Part shown: positions 2,194-63,050 of the stretch, piece after piece
Layout: each line of letters starts with the position of its first letter
How positions within the stretch are numbered: the first letter of the stretch is position 1
Sequence record: PZ154895.1
Origin: a phage
Direction: 5' to 3' (one strand)
DNA length: 64,000 nucleotides
The notes under the pieces: generated by a model
What the model was told of the DNA's origin: nothing
Databases searched by the model: none
What the model saw: only the letters and a program-made list of their open reading frames with translations
Made by a program: the position numbers and the translations under genes

Positions 2194-2487
2194 CTATTTA
2201 ATGAATACTTTAGATGATGCCTGAGCCACAGTATCACCGCATGATATTGGATCAGCCATTTGAACAGCTTTCTTTCCAGTGACATATACCTTAGAAGTTC
2301 TAGGTTGTGTCACTCCGCCATGTGTTTCATATGGCTTTTTAATTTCTGTATGTTCTGTAATTGGATCACCTGCTACGAGAACAGCAATTCCTCCGGTGAA
2401 TACTTTACTTTGTGTGGCATTCACAACTGTTGGAGGCCACGCTTCATGGCCAGCAGTAACACACTTATCATAACTTAATCCTGACAT
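2194..2487 (-). CDS. 5.4: baseplate spike tip protein gp5.4 (PAAR-like)
   Basis: 97 aa ORF immediately downstream of gene 5 cluster, same length and position as T4 gp5.4. Confidence 0.8.
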
Positions 2488-3045
2488 TTATGGCCTCTCA
2501 TACACATAGCTTCTCAATTTATTAGCCCAACGACTCCAATTTCCAACTATAGTTTTTGTATAATTTTTAACAAGAGTTTTTCTTATTGGAGCAGGAGGAT
2601 CAGTTGGTTCAGTAGTATCAGAAGATGACCTAGAATTACTGCCAGAACCTCCAGATTCACTTTGTTCTTGGTAGTCATATATTAATGTTACTTCGTAAGT
2701 GAATGTCTTCTGGAGGTTTTGAGGAGCTTTCCATAGATATAACTGAGTATTAGAATCAGTTGGAAGGTCTTCCCATGAAGCAGCAGTTTTAAATTCATTA
2801 TCTAAACGATATTTCAATGCGTCATTTCCAAATCCAAACACAGATTCATACGTTCCATATAAACGATTTTTTTCTACTAAAACCCCAGGAGTTTCTTCGT
2901 AACTAGTTATATTTATAGATACTAACGTTTCACCCGTTTCTAATTGAGCGGTAAAGGTGACGTCGATAGAAGAACCTTCCATGGATTCTCCTAAATCAGC
3001 GCTCATTGGAAGTATATTAGCCAATGTCAATCCTCGATCCATCAA
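2488..3045 (-). CDS. 5.1: gp5.1-like protein; start uncertain (internal ATG at 3006 would avoid overlap with gene 5)
   Basis: 185 aa ORF between gene 5 and 5.4; acidic Ser/Gly-rich C-terminal region. Confidence 0.55.
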
Positions 3046-8054: not shown

Positions 8055-8751
<697 letters not shown>

Positions 8752-8763
8752 TTTCACAAAGTT

Positions 8764-8803
8764 GTTTACATGCTGATGAGGTAGTGATACTATTACCTCA
8801 TCA
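8764..8803 (+). promoter_or_regulatory. early promoter with stem-loop (PeSL-like): GTTTACA-N17-TACTAT inside 10-bp inverted repeat
   Basis: -35 8764-8770, -10 8788-8793; inverted repeat tgatgaggta (8774-8783) / tacctcatca (8794-8803). Confidence 0.6.
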
Positions 8804-8823: not shown

Positions 8824-9081
8824 ATGAAAACTTTCAAAGAGTTTGCTACAAAAACTACTATCACTGAATCTTCACACGGTATGGAAGTAAAGCTTGGAAT
8901 GGCTTTAGCTGAAGCTGAGCGTCTTTTATCTCGTATTAAAGAACTTGCTGCTGCAGTCGATCCTTCATCTTTTAAAGGAGACCAAACTAAAGTTAAAGCA
9001 CTTTTAGCATTATGCTCCGATGCAGGAGAAATTGCTAAAAATGGTTCTAAGATGAAGAAACGATTAGAAGATTTAAAATAA
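8824..9081 (+). CDS. internal protein-like (N-terminal capsid targeting sequence MKTFKEF..ITE)
   Basis: 85 aa; CTS-like N-terminus; paralogous to ORF 17106-17387; early promoter upstream. Confidence 0.55.
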   Translation: MKTFKEFATKTTITESSHGMEVKLGMALAEAERLLSRIKELAAAVDPSSFKGDQTKVKALLALCSDAGEIAKNGSKMKKRLEDLK

Positions 9082-9093
9082 TTTCACAAAGTT

Positions 9094-9129
9094 GTTTACA
9101 GAAGGGTAGTAGTGTGATACTATTACCCT
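9094..9129 (+). promoter_or_regulatory. early promoter (PeSL-like), second copy of the same cassette
   Basis: identical 31 nt to 8740-8770 including -35; -10 gatactat; inverted repeat agggta/taccct. Confidence 0.6.
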
Positions 9130-10125: not shown

Positions 10126-10198
10126 TGGGAATTAGCCAAGTTGGTAAGGCACTGGATTTTGATTCCAGGATGCAAAGGTTCGAGTCCTTTATTCCCAG
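10126..10198 (+). tRNA. tRNA-Gln (anticodon UUG)
   Basis: 7 bp acceptor tgggaat/attccca, anticodon stem ctgga/tccag, loop ttTTGat, T-arm GGTTCGAGTCC. Confidence 0.85.
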
Positions 10199-10199
10199 C

Positions 10200-10286
10200 G
10201 CGAGAATGGTCAAATTGGTAAAGGCACAGCACTTAAAATGCTGCGGAATGATTTCCTTGTGGGTTCGAGTCCCACTTCTCGCACCA
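10200..10286 (+). tRNA. tRNA-Leu (anticodon UAA), long variable arm, encoded CCA
   Basis: acceptor gcgagaa/ttctcgc, anticodon stem cagca/tgctg, loop ctTAAaa, T-arm GGTTCGAGTCC. Confidence 0.85.
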
Positions 10287-10291
10287 AATTT

Positions 10292-10365
<74 letters not shown>

Positions 10366-10369
10366 ATTT

Positions 10370-11020
10370 ATGACTCGTCGTGAGACGCTCAGTTCTTTAT
10401 TAGGGACTGATATGCATTTTTATCTTTATAAAATAACAAATAAAATTAATAATAAAATTTATATTGGTGTGCATTCTACCGAAAATTTAGATGATGGATA
10501 TATGGGTTCTGGTAAATTATTAAAAAGAGCCCAAGACAAGTATGGTATAGAAAATTTTTCTAAAGAAATATTAGAGTATTTTGATGATAAAGAATCTATG
10601 CTTGAAGCCGAGAAAAATATTGTTACAGAAGAGTTTTTAAATAGACCAGATGTGTATAATTTAAAACTTGGCGGTGAAGGTGGATGGGACCACATAAATA
10701 ATTATCCTATGACAGATCAGCAACGCGAATTAATTTCATTGGGTGTTAAAAAGGCACATTCTAACGGAAAATTAAAAGGATGGTCTTCAAATGGATTAAT
10801 GAAGAATGGCTTTGCTGGTAAAACTCATTCTCAAGAAGCTAAACGTAAAATAGCAAAAGCAAACGAAGCAAAAGTTTCTGCGGATGAAAGAAAAAGAAGA
10901 ATAGAAATTTCTAAATTATATGATTTTTCTAAGCGTGGTGAATTATCTAAATATGCTAAGCATATTGGCGTAAGTCATACTCAAGCAAAAAGAATTCTAA
11001 ATCAAATTAACAATATATAA
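10370..11020 (+). CDS. segB: GIY-YIG homing endonuclease (SegB-like) inside the tRNA cluster
   Basis: 216 aa; GIY-YIG motif (FYLYKITN...KIYIGV); embedded between tRNA subclusters as T4 segB is. Confidence 0.8.
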   Translation: MTRRETLSSLLGTDMHFYLYKITNKINNKIYIGVHSTENLDDGYMGSGKLLKRAQDKYGIENFSKEILEYFDDKESMLEAEKNIVTEEFLNRPDVYNLKLGGEGGWDHINNYPMTDQQRELISLGVKKAHSNGKLKGWSSNGLMKNGFAGKTHSQEAKRKIAKANEAKVSADERKRRIEISKLYDFSKRGELSKYAKHIGVSHTQAKRILNQINNI

Positions 11021-11026
11021 ATATTT

Positions 11027-11116
11027 GGAGGCGTGGCAGAGTGGTTTAATGCACCGGTCTTGAAAACCGGCAGTCGCTCCGGCGACTCATAGGTTCAAAT
11101 CCTATCGCCTCCGCCA
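11027..11116 (+). tRNA. tRNA-Ser (anticodon UGA), long variable arm
   Basis: acceptor ggaggcg/cgcctcc, anticodon stem ccggt/accgg, loop ctTGAaa, T-arm GGTTCAAATCC, CCA encoded. Confidence 0.85.
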
Positions 11117-11121
11117 GTTTT

Positions 11122-11197
11122 GCTGATTTAGCTCAGTAGGTAGAGCAACTCACTTGTAATGAGAAGGTCGGCGGTTCGATCCCGTCAATCAGCACCA
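11122..11197 (+). tRNA. tRNA-Thr (anticodon UGU)
   Basis: acceptor gctgatt/aatcagc, D-arm AGCTCAGTAGGTAGAGC, loop ctTGTaa, T-arm GGTTCGATCC. Confidence 0.85.
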
Positions 11198-11198
11198 A

Positions 11199-11273
11199 GG
11201 CCCTGTAGCTGGAAGGTTCAAGCAAGCGACTCATAATCGCCAGATGGTGGTTCAATTCCACCCAGGGCCACCA
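11199..11273 (+). tRNA. tRNA with CAU anticodon (Ile-lysidine type or Met)
   Basis: acceptor ggccctg/cagggcc, loop ctCATaa, T-arm ggtgg-ttcaatt-ccacc. Confidence 0.75.
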
Positions 11274-11282
11274 AATTAATTT

Positions 11283-11369
11283 GGGGAGTTATCCCGTAGA
11301 GGTAGCGGTGTGGACTGTAAATTCATTGTCATTGCGACTCGGGTGGTTCGACTCCATCACTCCCCACCA
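11283..11369 (+). tRNA. tRNA with long variable arm, probable Tyr (anticodon GUA); D-arm non-canonical
   Basis: acceptor ggggagt/actcccc, loop CTGTAAA as in bacterial tRNA-Tyr, T-arm ggtgg-ttcgact-ccatc, CCA encoded. Confidence 0.55.
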
Positions 11370-11373
11370 ATTT

Positions 11374-11448
11374 GGATGTGTAGCTCAATGGCAGAGCGAT
11401 CGCCTGTTAAGCGATTGGTTATAGGTTCGAATCCTATCACGTCCGCCA
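11374..11448 (+). tRNA. tRNA-Asn (anticodon GUU)
   Basis: acceptor ggatgtg/cacgtcc, anticodon stem atcgc/gcgat, loop ctGTTaa, T-arm GGTTCGAATCC. Confidence 0.75.
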
Positions 11449-11452
11449 AATC

Positions 11453-11528
11453 CGAGGCATAGCTCAGAAGGAAGAGCAAGGACCTTCTAAGTCCTAGGTC
11501 GTAGGTTCGATCCCTACTGCCTCGACCA
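11453..11528 (+). tRNA. tRNA-Arg (anticodon UCU)
   Basis: acceptor cgaggca/tgcctcg, D-arm AGCTCAGAAGGAAGAGC, anticodon stem aggac/gtcct, loop ctTCTaa. Confidence 0.85.
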
Positions 11529-11895: not shown

Positions 11896-12234
11896 GAAAC
11901 CGGGTAGCTACCGGTAAGTCGTCGGACTGATGTTCCCTGCGTAAGGACTGGTCTTAATAAATCTTTACGATTTGTTAATATCCCCTTACATCACAGCAGA
12001 AACGGCGCACCGAATTATCGATTCGAGGAAATATCTTTGCCGTAAGCCGAGTAGCGTTTTTGACGGAACGTTCGGATATGGTCGAGATATGGCCTTTTAA
12101 AAATATTGAGTAGCGTCAACTGCTTAATAACCGGGTTCGAATCCCGGCGTTTCGTACAAACACTTGCCTTAGCAGGTGGAACCCCGACAAGGTTGCCGCA
12201 AGGCTTAGCCCCAACCGAAAGGTTGGGGCTTTTT
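11896..12234 (+). ncRNA. candidate stable structured RNA(s), by position analogous to T4 species 1/2 RNAs; ends in terminator
   Basis: 339 nt with no ORF of 60 aa or more; perfect T-arm-like hairpin ccggg-TTCGAAT-cccgg at 12131-12147; palindrome ccgggtagctaccgg at 11899-11915; terminator at 12207-12234. Confidence 0.35.
12207..12234 (+). terminator. rho-independent terminator
   Basis: hairpin agcccca-accgaaaggt-tggggct followed by TTTT. Confidence 0.7.
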
Positions 12235-12284
12235 AGTATAAATATAGTAGTATATTAAATCTACGAATTAAAACAGGAAATAAG

Positions 12285-12758
12285 ATGAAATCATATGCTC
12301 AATTTTTAAATGAAGCGGTGTTAAATGAAGCATCTAGCACCGAAATTCAAGCTGTCGCAAAAGCAGCCATTGCAGCGGGTAAATATTCCTATAAAGATGC
12401 TTCTGACGAATCACGATTCCAATTTGCTCGCGACATGAAAGCAGAAGGATTTACGGGAAATGCGGTTAGTATGGCCTGGAAAAGTTTAGTTGCTACTGGT
12501 GCTGCTTTTGCAAAGGCTTCGGGTAAACCTGCTCCTAAAGCAGATCCTAAAGCTACACAAGAAAAAAATATTGTTAAAGGAATTATCGCTAAGTATGAAG
12601 CTATCCTTAAAGAGCTTTTAGTAATCAAAACCGAAGGCCAAAAGTTAGCCCGTGCCTATAGTTTCAAAGATAATCCACATGTTCACTCTCTTGAGTATGT
12701 TGAAGACATCCAAAAAATTATTAAAGACCGCATTTGGTCTGCTAAACAAATCAAATAA
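12285..12758 (+). CDS. internal protein-like (CTS MKSYAQFLNE-A), Ala/Lys-rich
   Basis: 157 aa; N-terminus resembles T4 internal-protein capsid targeting sequence; followed by terminator. Confidence 0.55.
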   Translation: MKSYAQFLNEAVLNEASSTEIQAVAKAAIAAGKYSYKDASDESRFQFARDMKAEGFTGNAVSMAWKSLVATGAAFAKASGKPAPKADPKATQEKNIVKGIIAKYEAILKELLVIKTEGQKLARAYSFKDNPHVHSLEYVEDIQKIIKDRIWSAKQIK

Positions 12759-12766
12759 CATTCTTA

Positions 12767-12793
12767 ACCCCGACCAAAAGGTTGGGGCTTTTT
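12767..12793 (+). terminator. rho-independent terminator (paralog of 12207 hairpin)
   Basis: ccccgacc-aaaa-ggttgggg followed by CTTTTT. Confidence 0.7.
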
Positions 12794-12914
12794 GGTATCT
12801 AGGCCTTTCCGCGCCTCTCTAGGCATCATTTAGTTTATACACTTTATAATATATTATCCTATCCTTTAATTGCCCATCCCTTCCCTAGAATTCCCTAAAA
12901 CTTTTAAAAAAAAA

Positions 12915-12973
12915 TTTTTCACAAAACTGTTTACATCTCTGTTCTTCCGTGGTACTATACAACTATCAACTAC
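12915..12973 (+). repeat. repeated promoter/leader cassette, copy A1
   Basis: about 58 nt near-identical to 56437-56494 (ttcacaaaactgtttacatc...ggtactatacaactatcaact). Confidence 0.75.
12929..12958 (+). promoter_or_regulatory. early promoter GTTTACA-N17-TACTAT
   Basis: A/T-rich upstream element, -35 12929-12935, -10 12953-12958. Confidence 0.6.
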
Positions 12974-13001
12974 TGATACAGAAAACAACTTGGAGAATGA
13001 A

Positions 13002-13265
13002 ATGGATAATTACGGCGAACTGTTCAACTTCTTTATGAAATGTGTTTCAGAAGATTTCGGTCGTACAGTGAATGATATTAAAGTTATCGGTCCTGACCAT
13101 CCGATGTTTGAAACTTACGCAGTAATGGGTAATGAAGACGGTCAGTGGTATACTGTAAAGGTTGTGATTAACATGTTCACAGCAGAAGGTTATGATAAAC
13201 TGTCTTCTAAAGTTTATCATGATAACGACGAAATCGCAGAAGAATATTTCAATAATATGAAATAA
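13002..13265 (+). CDS. hypothetical protein
   Basis: 87 aa from ATG 13002 (SD GGAG); ORF-track N-terminal extension lies in the repeated promoter cassette. Confidence 0.55.
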   Translation: MDNYGELFNFFMKCVSEDFGRTVNDIKVIGPDHPMFETYAVMGNEDGQWYTVKVVINMFTAEGYDKLSSKVYHDNDEIAEEYFNNMK

Positions 13266-14307: not shown

Positions 14308-14348
14308 TGATAAGGGGCTTCGGCCCCTATTACTTGGAGTAAATAGGA

Positions 14349-17388: not shown

Positions 17389-17442
17389 GTTTACTTCCTC
17401 CAAGGACTTTGATACTATACATTCATCAACTACTTGGAGGAA
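17389..17442 (+). promoter_or_regulatory. early promoter with stem-loop (PeSL-like) upstream of denV
   Basis: -35 GTTTACT, -10 TACTAT at 17413-17418; 10-bp inverted repeat ttcctccaag (17394-17403) / cttggaggaa (17433-17442) that includes the SD. Confidence 0.6.
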
Positions 17443-20493: not shown

Positions 20494-20542
20494 GTTTACT
20501 TTTCCTCTTGACTGTGGTATAATTTTTCTATCAGTTAAGAGG
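20494..20542 (+). promoter_or_regulatory. early promoter upstream of regB (GTTTACT-N17-TATAAT) with flanking imperfect inverted repeat
   Basis: -35 20494-20500, -10 20518-20523; cctctt / aagagg arms. Confidence 0.6.
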
Positions 20543-26840: not shown

Positions 26841-27850
26841 TGAAAACAGTAATGAAAAGCTATTTTGGTAGTCATCTTTATGGAACTTCTACTCCAGAAT
26901 CTGATGTAGATTTTAAAGAAATCTTTGTTCCTCCTGCTCGCGATATTCTTATCGGAAATGTTAAAGAGCATATGAGTAAAAACACTAACAACACATCATC
27001 TAAAAACACTAAAGATGATATTGACCATGAACTATACAGTCTTAAGTATTTCTTTAAATTAGCAGCAGATGGTGAAACTGTAGCATTGGATATGCTCCAC
27101 ACTCCACCTGAGTTAGTGGTTAAATCTGATTTGCCTGATGTATGGAAGTTTATTCAAGACAATCGTTCTCGTTTTTATACGACTAACATGAAATCCTATT
27201 TAGGATATGTTCGCAAGCAAGCTTCTAAATATGGTGTTAAGGGTTCTCGTTTGGCCGCATTGCGTGATGTATTGAAAGTAGTTAATCAAATCCCTGATCA
27301 GTGGGTTGATTACCAAGAAGACGGTTCCATTAAGCAGCGTCGCACTAAAGTTGAAGATATTAAGCATCGTCTTCCAGAAAACGAGTTCTGTGAATGGGTG
27401 TTCCACAATCATGAGAAAACAGGCCCACAAACGTTCTATACTGTGTTGGGTCGTAAATATCAGACAACTCTTTCTCTTATTGAGCTTAAGCAGTCTTTGA
27501 ATAAACTTGATGCCGAATACGGTGAACGCGCTCGTAAGGCTGAAGCTAATGAGGGCATTGACTGGAAAGCTTTGAGTCATGCTTGTCGTGGTGGACTCCA
27601 ACTATTGGAAATTTACAAAACTGGTGACTTGGTTTATCCACTTAAAGATGCTCCATTTATTCTCGACGTGAAGTTGGGTAAACATCCATTTAAAACTGTT
27701 CAAGAGTTTTTGGAAGATGTGGTCGATCAAGTAGAAGCAGCATCCATTGAAGCTTCTAAGAACGGTATGCAGCAAAAAGTAGACATGGGTTTCTGGGATG
27801 ACTTCCTTGAGAGGGTTTATCTTGAAAACCACCGAAGTTATTATAAATGA
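26837..27850 (+). CDS. Pol-beta superfamily nucleotidyltransferase-like protein
   Basis: 337 aa; N-terminal hGS..G(x5)SDxDh motif (FGSHLYGTSTPESDVDF); strong terminator downstream. Confidence 0.6.
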   Translation: MMKTVMKSYFGSHLYGTSTPESDVDFKEIFVPPARDILIGNVKEHMSKNTNNTSSKNTKDDIDHELYSLKYFFKLAADGETVALDMLHTPPELVVKSDLPDVWKFIQDNRSRFYTTNMKSYLGYVRKQASKYGVKGSRLAALRDVLKVVNQIPDQWVDYQEDGSIKQRRTKVEDIKHRLPENEFCEWVFHNHEKTGPQTFYTVLGRKYQTTLSLIELKQSLNKLDAEYGERARKAEANEGIDWKALSHACRGGLQLLEIYKTGDLVYPLKDAPFILDVKLGKHPFKTVQEFLEDVVDQVEAASIEASKNGMQQKVDMGFWDDFLERVYLENHRSYYK

Positions 27851-27852
27851 TA

Positions 27853-27879
27853 GGGAGCCTTCGGGCTCCCTTTTTTTTT
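27853..27879 (+). terminator. rho-independent terminator
   Basis: gggagcc-TTCG-ggctccc followed by nine T. Confidence 0.8.
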
Positions 27880-27902
27880 GTTTAAAATGACGTCACAAAG
27901 TT

Positions 27903-27932
27903 GTTTACTTCTATCGCAAAGCATATTATAAT
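27903..27932 (+). promoter_or_regulatory. early promoter GTTTACT-N17-TATAAT
   Basis: -35 at 27903-27909, -10 at 27927-27932, preceded by tcacaaagtt UP-like element. Confidence 0.55.
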
Positions 27933-27978
27933 ATATGTGTAGTTAATTAATTGCTCTTTAAAAATTGAGGAGAATACA

Positions 27979-28269
27979 ATGCATATTTTAATGCAATGCC
28001 TTGGCAACAAAATTAATGATTTTAATCATAAGCGTGTTAATGATTACATTAAAGACAAACTTGAGATTAAAGACATACTTTTTAGAGGACTTACAATAGA
28101 GGAAGTGCTATCTTATAAGTTTGAAGTTAATAGGAGAATCAAATTTAAAAGAATAACTTCCTTTAGCAGTGAGTCTCATATAGCTGAAACGTTTGCAGCA
28201 GAACGCTATATGACTAATGCTTTAGTAGTGTTAAAAATGCAAACGTTTTCGACTATTCGACTGCTATGA
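27979..28269 (+). CDS. hypothetical protein
   Basis: 96 aa, early promoter upstream. Confidence 0.45.
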   Translation: MHILMQCLGNKINDFNHKRVNDYIKDKLEIKDILFRGLTIEEVLSYKFEVNRRIKFKRITSFSSESHIAETFAAERYMTNALVVLKMQTFSTIRLL

Positions 28270-28463
28270 TTGACATTTTAGAAAATTTAATCGCAATTGA
28301 AGAATCTGGCCAAACTGACGATGATAAGCTTAACAAGCTTTATGATAATCTTTGTATGGTAGATTATGAAAGAGAGTTTTTACTGCCAACTAATTCTGAG
28401 TTAATAGTTAAAAACATATATTTTGATAGCAAAAAGAACATGCATATAGTAGAAATGGAATAA
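28266..28463 (+). CDS. hypothetical acidic protein
   Basis: 65 aa. Confidence 0.45.
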   Translation: MIDILENLIAIEESGQTDDDKLNKLYDNLCMVDYEREFLLPTNSELIVKNIYFDSKKNMHIVEME

Positions 28464-28483
28464 ATCGACACAAAGGGGGCTAT

Positions 28484-28506
28484 GGTACTATACAACTATC
28501 AACTAC
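28484..28506 (+). repeat. 23-nt core GGTACTATACAACTATCAACTAC (partial cassette copy)
   Basis: exact match to cores at 12951-12973 and 29926-29948. Confidence 0.7.
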
Positions 28507-28528
28507 TGATACAGATTTGGAGAATAAA

Positions 28529-29497
28529 ATGAAAACTGTAACTATCAATAAGGGTATCTACTTTGGTAAAGAAATCTCTGGAACTTTTGAGCTCTTAGGC
28601 GAATGGTTCCCAGATAATGCTCCGGTAGATGCACAAGGAGATGGTAAAGTTTTTGTTGAAATTGACGGTAAACGTCGCGGTGTTTGGGTTTACAAATCAG
28701 ATATTTCATATGATGGTGTAAAAGTTGAAGAAGTTAAAGAATCGTATGAAGATATGAAAACCCGCATTAATAAAAGATTTAATGTTATGGGAATGATGAC
28801 GAACGGTATTATTAATGGAAATATTCGTTCATTAATTATCTCTGGCGCAGCAGGTATTGGTAAAACGTATTCTTTAGATAAAGCTTTAAATAAAGCAAAT
28901 GATATTGGATACATTGAATATAAAAGCATTAATGGTAAAATCTCTGGTATTGGTCTTTATGAGCAGCTTTGGAATAATCGTGAAGAGAATTCTGTCCTTT
29001 TGATTGATGATGTGGATGTTTTCTCTGATATGGACATTCTTAATCTTCTAAAAGCTGCTCTGGACACTGGAGAGACCCGTAAAGTCTGCTGGAGCACTGC
29101 GTCTTCTTACTTAGAAGAAAAAGGCATTGACCGTGAGTTTGAATTTAAAGGAACGATTGTTTTTATCACAAACGTTGACATTGACCGCGAATTAGACCGT
29201 GGTACTAAACTTGCTCCACATTTACAAGCATTAGTGTCCCGCTCAGTTTATTTGGATTTGGGTGTTCACACTAATGAAGAAATTATGGTCAGGGTTGAAG
29301 ATGTTATTCTTTCAACTGACATGATGCAAAAGCGTGGTCTTTCTGATGAAGAAACTTATAAAGCATTATCATGGATGAAAGTTAATGTTAATCGTTTACG
29401 CAATGTTTCACTGCGTACTGCTCTTTATCTTGCTGACTTTATTATGACCGACAAAAACGGTTGGGAAGAAATTGCTGAGGTTACTCTTCTGAAATAA
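28529..29497 (+). CDS. AAA+ family ATPase with N-terminal extra domain
   Basis: 322 aa from ATG 28529; Walker A GAAGIGKT, Walker B LLIDDVD. Confidence 0.65.
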   Translation: MKTVTINKGIYFGKEISGTFELLGEWFPDNAPVDAQGDGKVFVEIDGKRRGVWVYKSDISYDGVKVEEVKESYEDMKTRINKRFNVMGMMTNGIINGNIRSLIISGAAGIGKTYSLDKALNKANDIGYIEYKSINGKISGIGLYEQLWNNREENSVLLIDDVDVFSDMDILNLLKAALDTGETRKVCWSTASSYLEEKGIDREFEFKGTIVFITNVDIDRELDRGTKLAPHLQALVSRSVYLDLGVHTNEEIMVRVEDVILSTDMMQKRGLSDEETYKALSWMKVNVNRLRNVSLRTALYLADFIMTDKNGWEEIAEVTLLK

Positions 29498-29901: not shown

Positions 29902-29925
29902 TGGTTTACAAGACTGTTCCTCTGT

Positions 29926-29948
29926 GGTACTATACAACTATCAACTAC
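29926..29948 (+). repeat. 23-nt core GGTACTATACAACTATCAACTAC (partial cassette copy)
   Basis: exact match to cores at 12951-12973 and 28484-28506. Confidence 0.7.
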
Positions 29949-29961
29949 GGAGGAACAGAAA

Positions 29962-30489
29962 ATGAACGCTAAAGATATTTTCAACCTGGTAAATTACAAC
30001 GATGGTAAATTTAAATCTGAAGCACAAAGCAAGTTCTTTAACGACATCTCAATCGGAGGTGAAATCACTGTTGATGGAGGACAAATTTACAAATCCCGTT
30101 GGAACTGGATCGTTATTATTGATGAGATTGGTATTGTCGAAATTTACAAGAATACGAATAAAAATCGTACATTACACTGGTCTCGTGATACTAACGAACA
30201 GTACAAAAAAGATAAAGCATCTAAAATTTCTCGTGTAACTCAAGAAGATATTGAGTTTATCAAGAAAGATATTTTAATGTATGATAACTTAATTGCTGAA
30301 GAGCAAGCTGTTATTGATAAATTTGACGAGATTAAAGCTTCTCGTGAAATTCCTGATTTTATGAAAGAATCAGTAAATGAACGATACACTCTCATTTCAG
30401 AGCGTATTGAAACTTACAAAAAGCAAAGAGCTGAACGCCAAAATACTCTTCGGAAGTTTGAAGAACGGTTAAAGACGGTACTCGCATAA
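29962..30489 (+). CDS. hypothetical protein with C-terminal coiled coil
   Basis: 175 aa; promoter cassette upstream. Confidence 0.5.
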   Translation: MNAKDIFNLVNYNDGKFKSEAQSKFFNDISIGGEITVDGGQIYKSRWNWIVIIDEIGIVEIYKNTNKNRTLHWSRDTNEQYKKDKASKISRVTQEDIEFIKKDILMYDNLIAEEQAVIDKFDEIKASREIPDFMKESVNERYTLISERIETYKKQRAERQNTLRKFEERLKTVLA

Positions 30490-37545: not shown

Positions 37546-39359
37546 CAATTGAAAAAGAAATTGAAGGATTGATTCATAAAACTAATAAAGACCTTTTAAA
37601 CGAGAATGCTAATAAAGATTCTCGTGTTTTTCCAACTCAACGGGACCTTATGGCTGGTATTGTGTCTAAACACATTGCCAAAAATATGGTCCCGTCTTTT
37701 ATTATGAAAGCGCATGAAAGCGGAATTATTCATTTCCATGATATTGATTATTCCCCTGCTCTTCCATTTACTAATTGCTGTTTAGTAGATTTAAAAGGAA
37801 TGCTTGAAAACGGATTTAAGCTCGGCAATGCACAGATTGAAACTCCTAAATCAATCGGCGTTGCTACTGCAATTATGGCACAAATTACTGCACAGGTTGC
37901 TTCCCATCAATACGGTGGAACGACTTTTGCGAATGTAGATAAAGTCCTTTCTCCTTATGTTAAACGCACCTATGCAAAACATATTGAGGATGCAGAAAAA
38001 TGGCAAATCGCTGATGCGTTGAATTATGCCCAATCTAAAACAGAAAAAGACGTATACGATGCATTCCAAGCTTATGAATATGAAGTAAATACTCTCTTTA
38101 GTTCAAACGGACAAACGCCTTTTGTAACAATTACATTTGGTACGGGAACTGACTGGACTGAACGAATGATTCAGAAAGCAATTCTGAAAAATCGTATTAA
38201 AGGTCTTGGTCGTGACGGGATAACTCCTATTTTCCCTAAGCTTGTTATGTTCGTTGAAGAGGGTGTTAATCTTTATAAAGACGATCCGAACTATGATATT
38301 AAGCAGCTTGCTTTAGAGTGTGCAAGCAAAAGAATGTATCCTGACATCATTTCGGCTAAGAACAATAAAGCTATCACCGGTTCATCTATTCCTGTTTCTC
38401 CAATGGGTTGTCGTAGTTTCTTGAGTGTATGGAAAGATTCGACTGGTAATGAAATTCTTGATGGACGTAATAATCTTGGTGTTGTAACACTGAATCTTCC
38501 TCGTATTGCATTAGATTCTTATATTGGAACACAGTTCAATGAACAGAAATTTACTGAATTGTTCAATGAGCGAATGGATTTATGTTTTGAAGCATTGATG
38601 TGTAGAATTAGTTCCTTAAAAGGAGTTAAAGCGACTGTTGCTCCTATTCTTTACCAAGAAGGTGCATTCGGGGTTCGTCTTAAACCTGATGACGATATAA
38701 TTGAGTTATTTAAAAACGGTAGAAGTTCAGTGTCCCTAGGATACATCGGTATTCACGAATTGAATATTCTTGTCGGTCGTGATATTGGACAGGAAATTTT
38801 AACTAAAATGAATGCTCGTCTTAAGCAGTGGACTGAAAGAACTGGTTTTGCTTTTAGCTTGTATTCTACTCCTGCTGAAAACCTGTGCTATCGCTTCTGT
38901 AAACTTGATACCGAAAAATATGGAAGTGTAAAGGATGTTACTGATAAAGGCTGGTACACCAACAGTTTCCACGTTTCAGTAGAAGAAAATATTACTCCGT
39001 TTGAAAAGATTTCTCGAGAAGCCCCATATCATTTCATTGCGACAGGTGGTCACATTTCTTATGTTGAACTTCCTGATATGAAAAATAACCTAAAAGGTCT
39101 TGAGGCTGTATGGGATTATGCTGCACAACATTTAGATTATTTTGGTGTTAACATGCCGGTAGATAAATGTTTTACGTGTGGAAGTACCCATGAAATGACT
39201 CCTACTGAAAACGGATTTGTTTGTTCTATTTGTGGAGAAACTGATCCTAAAAAGATGAACACAATAAGAAGAACTTGTGGCTATTTGGGAAATCCGAATG
39301 AACGCGGATTTAATCTTGGCAAAAATAAAGAAATCATGCATAGGGTTAAACACCAATGA
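37542..39359 (+). CDS. nrdD: anaerobic ribonucleoside-triphosphate reductase NrdD, uninterrupted
   Basis: 605 aa; C-terminal glycyl radical region RRTCGYLG and Cys cluster CFTCGS...CSICG. Confidence 0.95.
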   Translation: MTIEKEIEGLIHKTNKDLLNENANKDSRVFPTQRDLMAGIVSKHIAKNMVPSFIMKAHESGIIHFHDIDYSPALPFTNCCLVDLKGMLENGFKLGNAQIETPKSIGVATAIMAQITAQVASHQYGGTTFANVDKVLSPYVKRTYAKHIEDAEKWQIADALNYAQSKTEKDVYDAFQAYEYEVNTLFSSNGQTPFVTITFGTGTDWTERMIQKAILKNRIKGLGRDGITPIFPKLVMFVEEGVNLYKDDPNYDIKQLALECASKRMYPDIISAKNNKAITGSSIPVSPMGCRSFLSVWKDSTGNEILDGRNNLGVVTLNLPRIALDSYIGTQFNEQKFTELFNERMDLCFEALMCRISSLKGVKATVAPILYQEGAFGVRLKPDDDIIELFKNGRSSVSLGYIGIHELNILVGRDIGQEILTKMNARLKQWTERTGFAFSLYSTPAENLCYRFCKLDTEKYGSVKDVTDKGWYTNSFHVSVEENITPFEKISREAPYHFIATGGHISYVELPDMKNNLKGLEAVWDYAAQHLDYFGVNMPVDKCFTCGSTHEMTPTENGFVCSICGETDPKKMNTIRRTCGYLGNPNERGFNLGKNKEIMHRVKHQ

Positions 39360-39826
39360 ATTACGACAGATTTTATCCCTGCGATTTTGTGAATGGCCCT
39401 GGATGCAGGGTCGTTCTTTTCGTTACGGGGTGTTTGCATAAATGTGAAGGGTGTTATAATAAATCAACATGGAATGCTAGAAATGGCGTTCCATTCACTG
39501 GTGAAACACTAGAACAATTAATTGAATGTTTGAATAATGATTATATAGAAGGATTAACTATAACTGGAGGAGACCCTCTTTATCCTGATAACCGGGATGC
39601 TGTTCATTGCATTGTTCAAACAGTAAAAAATCTTTATCCAAATAAAAGCATTTGGTTGTGGACAGGGTATAAGTTTGAAGATATTAAACAACTAGAAATG
39701 CTTAAATATGTTGATGTTATTATTGATGGGAAGTATGAGAAAAATCTTCCGACCAAAAAGCTGTGGCGAGGATCAGATAATCAGCGACTTTGGTCAAATA
39801 CCGATGGGGTGTGGAAACATGATTAA
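39356..39826 (+). CDS. nrdG: anaerobic RNR activating protein NrdG (radical SAM)
   Basis: 156 aa; CxxxCxxC-type motif CLHKCEGC; ATGA-coupled to nrdD. Confidence 0.9.
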   Translation: MNYDRFYPCDFVNGPGCRVVLFVTGCLHKCEGCYNKSTWNARNGVPFTGETLEQLIECLNNDYIEGLTITGGDPLYPDNRDAVHCIVQTVKNLYPNKSIWLWTGYKFEDIKQLEMLKYVDVIIDGKYEKNLPTKKLWRGSDNQRLWSNTDGVWKHD

Positions 39827-44141: not shown

Positions 44142-44165
44142 AAACCAAAACAATGAGGATATTAA

Positions 44166-45368
44166 ATGAAAGTATGCATTTTTATGGCTCGAGGTCTTGA
44201 AGGTTGTGGCGTAACTAAATTTTCTCTTGAGCAACGTGATTGGTTTATTAAAAATGGTCATGAAGTAACTTTGGTTTATGCTAAAGATAAATCATTTACT
44301 CGTAATTGCGCACATGATTATAAGTCATTTTCAATTCCGGTTTTATTGGCAAAAGAATACGATAAAACACTTAAGTTGGTAAATGATTGTGATATTCTAA
44401 TTATCAATTCAGTTCCTGCTACTTCAGTAGAAGAAGACACTATTAATAACTATAAAAAAATTATTGATAACATTAAACCTTCAGTTCGTGTTGTAGTTTA
44501 TCAGCATGACCATTCTTCTCTTTCTTTGCGCCGAAATTTGGGATTAGAAGAAACTGTTCGTCGAGCTGATGTTATTTTTAGTCATTCTGATAATGGTGAT
44601 TTTAATAAAGTTCTGATGAAAGAATGGTATCCGGAAACTGTTTCTCTGTTTGATGATATTGAAGAAGCACCGACCGTATATAACTTTCAGCCTCCTATGG
44701 ATATTGCGAAGGTTCGATCAACTTACTGGAAAGATGTTTCTGAAATTAACATGAATATCAACCGTTGGATTGGTCGTACTACTACATGGAAAGGCTTTTA
44801 TCAGATGTTTGATTTTCACGAAAAACATCTTAAACCTGCAGGACTAAGTACTATTATGGAAGGTCTGGAACGTTCTCCAGCGTTCATTCCTATTAAAGAA
44901 AAAGGAATTCCATACGAGTATTATCGTCTTCATCAAGTAGACCAAATTAAAATTGCTCCTAATTTGCCAACGCAAATTCTCGACCGTTATGTAAATAGCG
45001 AAATGCTTGAACGCATGAGTAAATCCGGATTTGGTTATCAGCTGAGTAAATTAGATAAAAAATATCTACAACGTTCTTTAGAATATACTCATCTCGAGCT
45101 TGGTGCATGCGGAACAATTCCAGTATTTTGGAAATCTACTGGCGAAAATTTAAAATTCCGTGTTGATAATACTCCGTTAATTTCTCATGATAGCGGTATC
45201 GTTTGGTTTGATGAAAATGACATGGAATCAACATTTGAGCGTATTAAAGAACTGTCATCTGACCGAGCTCTTTATGACCGTGAACGCGAAAAAGCTTATG
45301 AATTTTTGTATCAGCATCAAGATTCAAGCTTCTGCTTTAAAGAACAGTTTGACATTATTACAAAATAA
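44166..45368 (+). CDS. a-gt: DNA alpha-glucosyltransferase
   Basis: 400 aa beginning MKVCIFMARGLEGCGVTKFSLEQRDWFIKNGHEV; matches T4 AGT as recalled; MotA-box promoter upstream. Confidence 0.95.
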   Translation: MKVCIFMARGLEGCGVTKFSLEQRDWFIKNGHEVTLVYAKDKSFTRNCAHDYKSFSIPVLLAKEYDKTLKLVNDCDILIINSVPATSVEEDTINNYKKIIDNIKPSVRVVVYQHDHSSLSLRRNLGLEETVRRADVIFSHSDNGDFNKVLMKEWYPETVSLFDDIEEAPTVYNFQPPMDIAKVRSTYWKDVSEINMNINRWIGRTTTWKGFYQMFDFHEKHLKPAGLSTIMEGLERSPAFIPIKEKGIPYEYYRLHQVDQIKIAPNLPTQILDRYVNSEMLERMSKSGFGYQLSKLDKKYLQRSLEYTHLELGACGTIPVFWKSTGENLKFRVDNTPLISHDSGIVWFDENDMESTFERIKELSSDRALYDREREKAYEFLYQHQDSSFCFKEQFDIITK

Positions 45369-56334: not shown

Positions 56335-56347
56335 TAGAATAAATCTA

Positions 56348-56368
56348 GGGACCTCCGGGTCCCTTTTT
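56348..56368 (+). terminator. rho-independent terminator after gene 43
   Basis: gggacc-TCCG-ggtccc followed by TTTTT. Confidence 0.75.
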
Positions 56369-56436
56369 CATACAAGTAATATAAATCTATACTTAGGAAA
56401 AATAGATGATTCTAGGTCCTGTAAATTCATTAAAAA

Positions 56437-56494
56437 TTTTTTCACAAAACTGTTTACATCCCCGTTCTTCCATGGTACTATACAACTATCAACT
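56437..56494 (+). repeat. repeated promoter/leader cassette, copy A2
   Basis: near-identical to 12915-12973; spurious upstream ORF extensions translate to the same peptide FFTKLFTS.FF.GTIQLST. Confidence 0.75.
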
Positions 56495-56515
56495 GATATG
56501 GATTTGGAGAATAAA

Positions 56516-56752
56516 ATGAAAATTGTTTATGGTTGTTTAGCAGTGTGTTTAGTTGCATTAGCAACTGTTCCATTTATTGATATTGAAAATGACACTCAGA
56601 ATGTGATTGAATCTAATACTATTATTCACATGAATGGTAAAGTATCAACAAAAATTGATGATAATCTTCATATGAATACTAATGGAACGTTGGGTGTTCA
56701 ATTAGGTAATACCTGTGTAAGCACTACTGGAGTAATTACTACTTGTATTTGA
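56516..56752 (+). CDS. small secreted protein
   Basis: 78 aa from ATG 56516; N-terminal signal peptide; preceded by repeated promoter cassette. Confidence 0.5.
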   Translation: MKIVYGCLAVCLVALATVPFIDIENDTQNVIESNTIIHMNGKVSTKIDDNLHMNTNGTLGVQLGNTCVSTTGVITTCI

Positions 56753-56762
56753 GGAAATTATT

Positions 56763-57143
56763 ATGAAAATCGCTATTTTGGTTATTGCATTAGGTCTTAC
56801 TGGCTGTGTAGCTCAAGGACCAGTAGTAAATCAGTCTGATGTAGGAAAAATTGTAAACTGTTCAAGCAAATTTTATAATCCTAACGTCAAGTGTTATAAA
56901 GAAGCTCCAAAACAGACAGTAGAACAAATGCAGGCGAATTTTGACGAAGCTATTCGTCCAGATGAATCTGCTCAAGCATATCGTAATTCAGATGTGATTA
57001 CACGTGAAGAAAAAATTGAAAACTACTGTGCTGAACTTTGGGCAAATTGGGCTAATAATTACCAATGGCGTACCGGTAAAAATGCTCCGATGGAGTATGT
57101 AGTAAATTCTTATAATTCATGCGTAAAAAATTTGACTAAGTGA
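56763..57143 (+). CDS. lipoprotein
   Basis: 126 aa; lipobox LTGC after hydrophobic signal. Confidence 0.55.
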   Translation: MKIAILVIALGLTGCVAQGPVVNQSDVGKIVNCSSKFYNPNVKCYKEAPKQTVEQMQANFDEAIRPDESAQAYRNSDVITREEKIENYCAELWANWANNYQWRTGKNAPMEYVVNSYNSCVKNLTK

Positions 57144-62986: not shown

Positions 62987-63050
62987 TTTACTTTTGTTTT
63001 AAACATGTTATTATAGACCTATCAAAACAAACGAGTAAATGGAGAATAAA

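Follow-up and report, generated by a model that had tools for sequence, protein, structure and literature searches.

Two segments of the phage DNA analyzed here, at positions 12915–12973 and 56437–56494, are almost identical in sequence although they lie 43 kb apart and precede different genes. The stretch containing them (record PZ154895.1) is 64,000 nucleotides long and is called the window throughout. In the initial annotation, the repeat was read as a promoter plus transcribed leader, with a core recurring at two further loci, and the whole was proposed to be a portable expression module placed in front of unrelated accessory genes. This reading raises two questions: whether the likeness goes beyond what early promoters have in common anyway, and whether it is the promoter or its neighboring genes that move.

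Sequence comparison with T4 identified the window as a segment of a T-even phage (Tequatrovirus) genome. It is collinear with T4 positions 83.3–20.1 kb in reverse orientation, with 85–98% identity across the major collinear blocks. Several of the differences between the two genomes are homing-endonuclease genes or an intron that are present in T4 and not in the window. T4-only DNA of 557, 1035, 601, and 861 bp is missing at window positions 2486–2491, 38077–38080, 39356–39376, and 44150–44175; based on T4 coordinates, these segments correspond, in the same order, to segC, the nrdD intron with I-TevII, mobC, and mobB. At the gathering threshold, Rfam matched only eight tRNAs in the window (10126–11525), and no family was matched at any of the four repeat loci.

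Four copies of an early promoter and leader

In the 64-kb window, there are exactly four occurrences of the 21-mer GGTACTATACAACTATCAACT, all on the plus strand, at 12951 (copy 1), 56474 (copy 2), 28484 (copy 3), and 29926 (copy 4). A chance repeat was rejected by a shuffle test: dinucleotide-preserving shuffles averaged 0.01 matches at a tolerance of up to three mismatches, and not one shuffle in 100 had as many as four. The near-identity of the two outermost segments was borne out, as copies 1 and 2 are identical at 59 of 63 positions (12909–12971 versus 56432–56494) or, over a narrower span, at 54 of 57 (12915–12971 versus 56438–56494). The exact 23-nt core described in the initial annotation, which ends in CTAC, is present at 12951, 28484, and 29926; the copy at 56474 matches over 21 nt and then lacks the ACT triplet. 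Similarly, the cassette counted at four loci is complete at 12951, 29926, and 56474, but the copy at 28483 consists of the −10/leader half only.

Based on T4 annotation, the genes behind copies 1 to 4 are e.8, orf78 plus imm.1, nrdC.10, and nrdC.8, respectively. The description of these downstream genes as unrelated agrees with our results; blastp (E ≥ 0.8) and Pfam analysis detected no protein similarity among them, which rules out a set of related proteins downstream of the four copies. Coordinates of the copies, their parts, and the neighboring features are given in Table 1.

Table 1. Features at the four repeat loci of the window, listed by locus
Feature	Position	Strand	Remarks
Copy 1, putative early promoter and leader of e.8	12905..13004	+	T4 ortholog at 70675
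Copy 1, A/T tract	12905-12929		
Copy 1, -35	12930-12935		TTTACA; followed by 17-bp spacer
Copy 1, TGn	12950-12952		
Copy 1, -10	12953-12958		TACTAT
Copy 1, discriminator	12959-12964		ACAACT
Copy 1, predicted start	12965		A
Copy 1, ribosome-binding region	12992-13002		GGAGAATGAAA
Copy 1, ATG	13002		
e.8 homologue	13002..13265	+	87 aa; predicted to be served by copy 1
Terminator-like stem-loop upstream of copy 1	12768..12787	+	right member of duplicated terminator
Copy 2, putative early promoter and leader	56428..56518	+	ortholog of T4 imm.1 promoter
Copy 2, -35	56453-56458		
Copy 2, TGn	56473-56475		
Copy 2, -10	56476-56481		
Copy 2, predicted start	56488		
Copy 2, ribosome-binding region	56506-56516		GGAGAATAAAA
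Copy 2, ATG	56516		
Terminator-like stem-loop after gene 43	56347..56364	+	upstream of copy 2
orf78	56516..56752	+	small ORF, 78 aa, hydrophobic N-terminus
imm.1	56763-57143		beyond orf78
Cassette inserted relative to T4 in nrdC.10 promoter region	27852..28463	+	
Cassette, terminator	27852-27871		
Cassette, different early promoter	27904-27932		
Cassette, ADP-ribosyltransferase-like ORFs	27979-28269, 28266-28463		
Copy 3, shortened promoter and leader of nrdC.10	28483..28531	+	no -35, no upstream tract
Copy 3, TGn	28483-28485		
Copy 3, -10	28486-28491		
Copy 3, predicted start	28498		
Copy 3, ribosome-binding region	28519-28529		GGAGAATAAAA
Copy 3, ATG	28529		
nrdC.10	28529-29497		
Copy 4, putative early promoter and leader of nrdC.8	29905..29964	+	
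Copy 4, -35	29905-29910		
Copy 4, TGn	29925-29927		
Copy 4, -10	29928-29933		
Copy 4, predicted start	29940		
Copy 4, GGAG	29949-29952		
Copy 4, ATG	29962		
nrdC.8	29962-30489		

In copies 1, 2, and 4, a consensus scan identified TTTACA and TACTAT separated by a 17-bp spacer whose last bases are TGG. TGG precedes the −10 element in all four copies; copy 3 has this −10 without a −35, and the scan made no promoter call there. An A/T-rich tract (AAAAATTTTTTCACAAAACTG) lies upstream of copies 1 and 2, is weaker in copy 4, and is absent from copy 3. T4 early promoters are host sigma-70 promoters of the "uber" type, with UP, −35, TGn, and −10 elements together, and they run from an upstream A/T tract through GTTTAC and a 17-bp spacer to TGn and TAyTAT (PMC2988021). 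The −35-like GTTTAC(A/T), the 17(±1)-bp spacer, and the TAnnAT of this type are found in copies 1, 2, and 4, and we also found TGn, the A/T tract, and orthology on the early strand upstream of early genes. The TTTACA-17-TACTAT arrangement of these three copies likewise fits the consensus TTTACW-N17-TAYWAT that the PST/T4 study gives for promoters of PeSL units (PMC4122927), which are considered further below.

The motif ATCA(ACTAC) lies six bases past the −10 in the copies, and most other early promoters in the window share both the motif and its position; based on this shared position, we placed the putative transcription starts at its A. The conserved start region consists of ACAACT and, from the start onward, ATCAACTAC; the leader follows, and then a GGAG ribosome-binding site. 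The proposal that the repeat comprises a promoter plus a transcribed leader is supported. The leaders are 22–37 nt long, and the primary transcripts are predicted to fold at 0 to −0.6 kcal/mol, which is no better than shuffles. With folding at the level of shuffles and Rfam empty at these loci, a structured leader RNA or a known RNA family was rejected.

The strong consensus for cleavage by RegB/S1 is GGAGRAYARAA, cut between the second G and the A (PMC3014915). In copies 2 and 3, GGAGAATAAAA agrees with this consensus at 11 of 11 positions, and copy 1 agrees at 10 of 11; copy 4 matches only through GGAGGA. As with the RegB/S1 sites of T4 early mRNAs, the likeness consists of an early-gene ribosome-binding site at an intergenic translation start within an unstructured leader, as RegB requires, and copy 4 differs from those sites in carrying only GGAG plus the next two positions. 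We infer that RegB would cleave at the GGAG sites of copies 1, 2, and 3. The region of the window that is collinear with T4 regB lies behind the early promoter at 20518.

In keeping with established T4 biology, these elements suggest how the copies may work. Host sigma-70 polymerase would transcribe from them immediately and very strongly after infection, and these putative promoters would drive e.8, orf78 plus imm.1, and nrdC.8. The open leader would favor efficient translation, and RegB would cut the ribosome-binding site within minutes and so switch off the early messages.

The exact 22-mer TGGTACTATACAACTATCAACT is present in T4 at all four orthologous loci (e.8, imm.1, nrdC.10, and nrdC.8), in the same positions and orientation as in the window; it also occurs before motA and ndd.6, and near-copies precede cef, frd.3, and denV. 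The window differs from T4 by small spacer and leader alleles, by an nrdC.10 copy without its −35 half, and by an imm.1 promoter that is predicted to read orf78 first. Five more T-even genomes (IMG/VR) contain the exact 22-mer before genes of the T4 set, and in some of these it also stands before additional small ORFs of the ndd-denB region. A 96-nt query matched 4314 places in 559 phage records, with 7–9 matching places per genome in most Tequatrovirus records among those listed. The same loci in T4, together with this number of places per Tequatrovirus record, suggest fixed orthologous elements rather than recent placements. The four copies thus appear to be a subfamily of the known, very strong T-even early promoters, orthologous to T4 positions, and this one window illustrates how T-even phages would reuse a single very strong promoter/leader design for unrelated early genes.

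In RB69 and a few other phages, only a single place matches the 96-nt unit; in RB69 it is the e.8 one, with 94.8% identity. A full-text literature search with the core sequence gave no match, and a T4 start-site data set was not found in our search of literature and data.

Likeness beyond the early-promoter consensus

The initial annotation had named, as the result that would overturn it, a likeness limited to generic consensus positions. For comparison, an alignment was made of the four copies and 15 further convincing early promoters from the window. Of the 57 positions that copies 1 and 2 have in common, only approximately 18 reach ≥70% conservation among the 15 others (counted from the consensus line). 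In the non-consensus columns of the spacer, identity is 0.79 between copies 1 and 2 and 0.64 between copies 1 and 4, compared with 0.31 ± 0.13 for other pairs, and copies 1 and 2 are alike at 11 of the 14 spacer positions that are not conserved elsewhere. The discriminator ACAACT is identical at 6/6 positions in all six pairs, against a background of 0.38 ± 0.18. Across the non-consensus columns, pairs among the four copies rank highest. Given these spacer and discriminator identities, a likeness confined to consensus positions was rejected; the similarity exceeds the generic promoter consensus, and the four copies are a true early-promoter subfamily.

Other early-promoter subfamilies were also seen in the window; one comprises 8736, 9066, 27875, and 40834, and another comprises 25126, 62168, and 62671.

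Between the window and T4, the 22-mer has no differences in 4 × 22 nt, whereas the surrounding blocks differ by 4.5–9%; by our own arithmetic, zero differences in 88 nt has a probability of about 1e-3. This pattern supports selection on the promoter, start, and leader as a cause of the likeness. Selection alone could suffice to keep the 22-mer invariant at four loci with diverging flanks, and pure functional convergence would then account for the copies through independent optimization for polymerase, start, and RegB/ribosome site, with no role for recombination. Other early promoters share parts of the motif (e.g., TG-TAyTAT, ATCAaCTAC, and GGAGAAtAAAATG), and most insertions and deletions in the window lie elsewhere, both of which are in line with convergence. 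We nevertheless consider it rather unlikely as the whole explanation. Convergence fits poorly with the spacer positions that copies 1 and 2 have in common and other early promoters do not conserve, and it fits poorly with three further observations, on alternative alleles at one locus, on distant T4 promoters, and on a collapsed cassette at nrdC.10.

At the imm.1 locus, the spacer has alternative alleles, and each of them matches another paralogue: the window, L012, and L019 have an e.8-like spacer (ATCCCy), whereas that of T4, L003, L011, and L014 starts nrdC.8-like (AAGAnT). These alleles are independent of the presence or absence of orf78. In the window, the imm.1 copy lacks the ACT triplet and the nrdC.10 copy has it; T4 shows the opposite arrangement. 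Long identical tracts are shared by the distant frd.3 and nrdC.10 promoters of T4, in that the frd.3 promoter (146854) is the same as the nrdC.10 promoter between about −60 and +4 and differs beyond that point. At nrdC.10, T2 and Citrobacter phage CF1 have a cassette between two units, which in T4 are collapsed to one hybrid unit. Recombination between dispersed copies would produce a patchwork of spacer and leader alleles such as the one observed, and the pattern supports exchange between dispersed copies as a cause of the likeness alongside selection. Homologous recombination or gene conversion between copies would be the route to such mosaics.

The T4 cef promoter (6609) has an e.8-type leader, ACTGATACAGAAAACAACTTGGAGAATAAAATG, behind a different upstream half. 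The frd.3 and cef promoters of T4 are both evident mosaics, each combining promoters that lie tens of kb from one another.

Alternatively, the invariant segment from −15 to +8 might be a regulatory operator bound by a phage factor, acting in early shut-off or in Alt-dependent stimulation; the promoters with this segment would then be a coregulated subset of immediate-early genes. Its 22/22 conservation takes in the discriminator as well as early transcribed positions, which vary among other early promoters, and according to reviews, the determinants of early-promoter shut-off and of Alt stimulation are not understood (PMC2988021, PMC3014915). However, the 22-mer contains no palindrome or repeat typical of operators, and promoter strength, promoter escape, and recombinational homogenization already explain its conservation, so that an operator seems quite improbable to us.

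Gain and loss of cassettes at the repeat loci

At the e.8 locus, the window has a 524-bp cassette (orf157, 12285–12758) upstream of copy 1 that T4 lacks. The cassette is bounded not by the promoter but by duplicated terminators (12204–12239 and 12763–12798), which over 36 nt have 89% identity. In phage JB75, this locus contains a second cassette bounded by terminators, with a 564-nt CDS. Terminator hairpins of the GGGCTTCGGCCC type form a family in the window, with members at 14309, 41725, 45364, 51389, and 53559; those at 45364 and 51389 are identical 22-nt copies.

At the imm.1 locus, the window has ~240 bp that T4 does not; this insertion, orf78, separates the imm.1 leader from imm.1. Both of its ends fall within a repeated ATGAAAAT at the two start codons, such that T4 positions 27006–27013 align twice. 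Only 8 bp are common to the two ends, and ordinary micro-homology deletion is therefore possible for the orf78 event. Using coverage of ≥80% of a 901-nt query by one place as a proxy for the presence of orf78, we counted 319 such records among 520 matching phage records.

The nrdC.10 locus contains 572 bp of window-only DNA (27909–28480; window 27908/28481 versus T4 55379/55365). This insert separates two parts of the T4 promoter, the −35 (27903–27908) and the TGG (28483), and it brings its own −10 and leader. Its ADP-ribosyltransferase-like gene is annotated as ModA/ModB-like, and the insert was found in only 44 phage records, T2 included. In both T2 and CF1, the gene is intact (486 nt) and lies between two complete units, each consisting of a terminator, upstream tract, and promoter, whereas in T4 the gene is missing and only one unit, a hybrid, is present. 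Two overlapping ORFs, of 96 and 65 aa, make up the gene in the window (27979–28463); the intact gene in T2 and CF1 indicates that the window version is frameshifted, is a pseudogene, or results from a sequencing error.

Where the window has copy 3, T2 and CF1 have a full terminator, upstream tract, −35, and spacer, of which ~65 bp is missing from the window. The lost DNA comprises the stem-loop, the upstream tract, the −35, and most of the spacer of the right-hand unit, and the deletion junction lies near 28480/28481. Copy 3 is therefore a deletion remnant and not a complete module. In the window, nrdC.10 would probably be read mainly from the promoter further upstream at 27904–27932.

The nrdC.8 locus shows no cassette difference between the window and T4. 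Relative to T4, a cassette difference is thus seen at three of the four loci, and at two of these, cassette ends lie inside promoter/leader units. To the check proposed in the initial annotation, whether genes behind the repeat are absent or replaced in related phages, these gains and losses give a positive answer. The portable expression module was upheld in one respect, as the promoter/leader unit does stand before unrelated genes with cassette turnover around it, but not in the other, since the promoters are resident and the neighboring genes move. Judging from the alignments, it is mostly genes beside resident promoters that appear to move, rather than a promoter that moves to a new gene.

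Recombination at repeats probably caused the insertions. Across the window, 5 of 44 insertion/deletion ends fall in early-promoter units, which make up 3% of its length (binomial P = 0.01); with the remaining 39 ends elsewhere, recombination at these promoters is a minority contribution.

Shuffling of modules by PeSL was proposed for RB49/phi1 (Arbiol et al. 2010, PMC2839356), and the model was extended to PST/T4 and vibriophages in a later study (Comeau et al. 2014, PMC4122927). Under this model, a cassette between two units collapses to one, and excised mini-circles are expected (PMC2839356). The portable-module idea is essentially this published hypothesis and is already known. The copies resemble PeSL in being ~100-bp conserved intergenic units with an A/T tract, an early promoter, and a ribosome-binding site and ATG at the 3′ end; they adjoin variable small ORFs, are associated with insertions, deletions, and replacements between close relatives, and include a locus (nrdC.10, T2/CF1 versus T4) at which two flanking units can collapse to one. 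In copy 4, a stem-loop overlaps the −10, as in the PeSL subclass published for RB49/phi1 (PMC2839356). Copies 1 and 2 differ from PeSL in having no significant stem-loop within the unit, their terminators lying 142 and 88 nt upstream of the −35, respectively, and the stem-loop of copy 3 is deleted in the window but kept in T2 and CF1. By the published description, PeSL membership is clear for copy 4 and weaker for copies 1 and 2.

Two 35-nt promoter halves in the window (8736–8770 and 9066–9100), which are 97% identical, surround 217 bp that stand in place of the ipI gene region of T4, where this region measures 254 bp. It is the variable internal-protein locus; the T-even internal-protein loci (Repoila et al. 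1994) are cited as a PeSL analogue by Arbiol et al. (PMC2839356).

On balance, we think it quite likely that the four copies belong to a T-even early-promoter subfamily that has been shaped by selection and by recombination between copies and that serves as crossover points for cassettes. Near-identity over 60–100 bp and an intergenic position would allow the units, together with adjoining terminators and translation starts, to act in this way, and small accessory-gene cassettes would be inserted or deleted at these points by the PeSL mechanism. Patches of identity, terminators, and conserved translation starts would thus form the seams along which small accessory genes are gained and lost.

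Crossover at resident promoters has a competitor in autonomous mobility, in which the repeat would be the end of a transposon- or integron-like element that carries the promoter and has a dedicated recombinase. Occurrence of the same module before at least seven different genes across T-even genomes would suit such an element, as would the helper protein speculated upon by Arbiol et al. (PMC2839356). Yet the positions of the copies agree among T4, the window, and the further T-even genomes that we examined, and T4 general recombination needs only short homologies (PMC2839356). The junctions that we read show neither terminal inverted repeats nor target-site duplications; instead, the cassettes are flanked by direct terminator or promoter repeats or by the 8-bp start-codon repeat, and no recombinase gene is associated with or adjacent to them. 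Based on these junctions, transposon-like mobility was rejected, and we regard a mobile element as extremely unlikely.

Three points are of use for annotation: orf78 would be read from the imm.1 promoter, nrdC.10 in this phage is without a complete promoter of its own, and the ADP-ribosyltransferase-like gene upstream of it is disrupted. The repeat is a clean illustration rather than a discovery, and it leaves the current picture of T4 biology unchanged.

Copy 4 and hairpins across the promoter spacer

Copy 4 contains a 15-bp inverted repeat (29914–29928 and 29944–29958) that brackets the −10 element and covers the ribosome-binding site. RNA reading through copy 4 is predicted to fold at −23.2 kcal/mol (z = −6.3), compared with 0 kcal/mol for the primary transcript. 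Read-through RNA from copies 1, 2, and 3 is not more stably folded than shuffled sequences (z = −0.5, +0.3, and +1.0, respectively), and based on the values for copies 1 and 2, a conserved hairpin was rejected as the explanation for the spacer that these two copies share.

In the T4 genes e, soc, 49, and I-TevI, a hairpin hides the ribosome-binding site in transcripts from upstream promoters, and the internal promoter is a middle or late one. Copy 4 is similar in that its read-through RNA would pair the spacer with GGAGG, whereas its own transcript is without the 5′ arm. It is different in that its promoter is early, and a role as an attenuator is equally possible; among the four copies, the comparison applies to copy 4 alone. 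A reading in which hairpins hide the ribosome-binding site from read-through transcripts was not found in the PeSL and T4 early-transcription papers examined.

A more far-reaching proposal is that the −15 to +8 segment marks a separate immediate-early class (e.8, imm.1, nrdC.8, nrdC.10, motA, and ndd.6) recognized by a phage factor, for example in early shut-off, and that hairpins insulate the cassettes. We give this combination little credence; if it were true, hairpins straddling the promoters would let each cassette gene be translated only from the transcript of its own promoter.

Spacers complementary to the first 10–25 transcribed bases were found in 10 of the 19 early promoters in the window (shuffle P below about 0.06), with −10 elements at 8788, 9118, 13290, 17413, 20518, 25150, 29928, 62192, 62695, and 63009. 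Because of this complementarity, read-through RNA would fold as a hairpin and the promoter's own transcript would stay open. The predicted read-through hairpins, which have the −10 in the loop, range from −16 to −24 kcal/mol at nine of the ten promoters and reach −9.0 kcal/mol at 63009. At 17413, 20518, and 29928, the 3′ arm lies over the ribosome-binding site. The T4 orthologues keep the hairpins through G-C/G-U/A-U changes, and pairing is preserved only on the sense strand.
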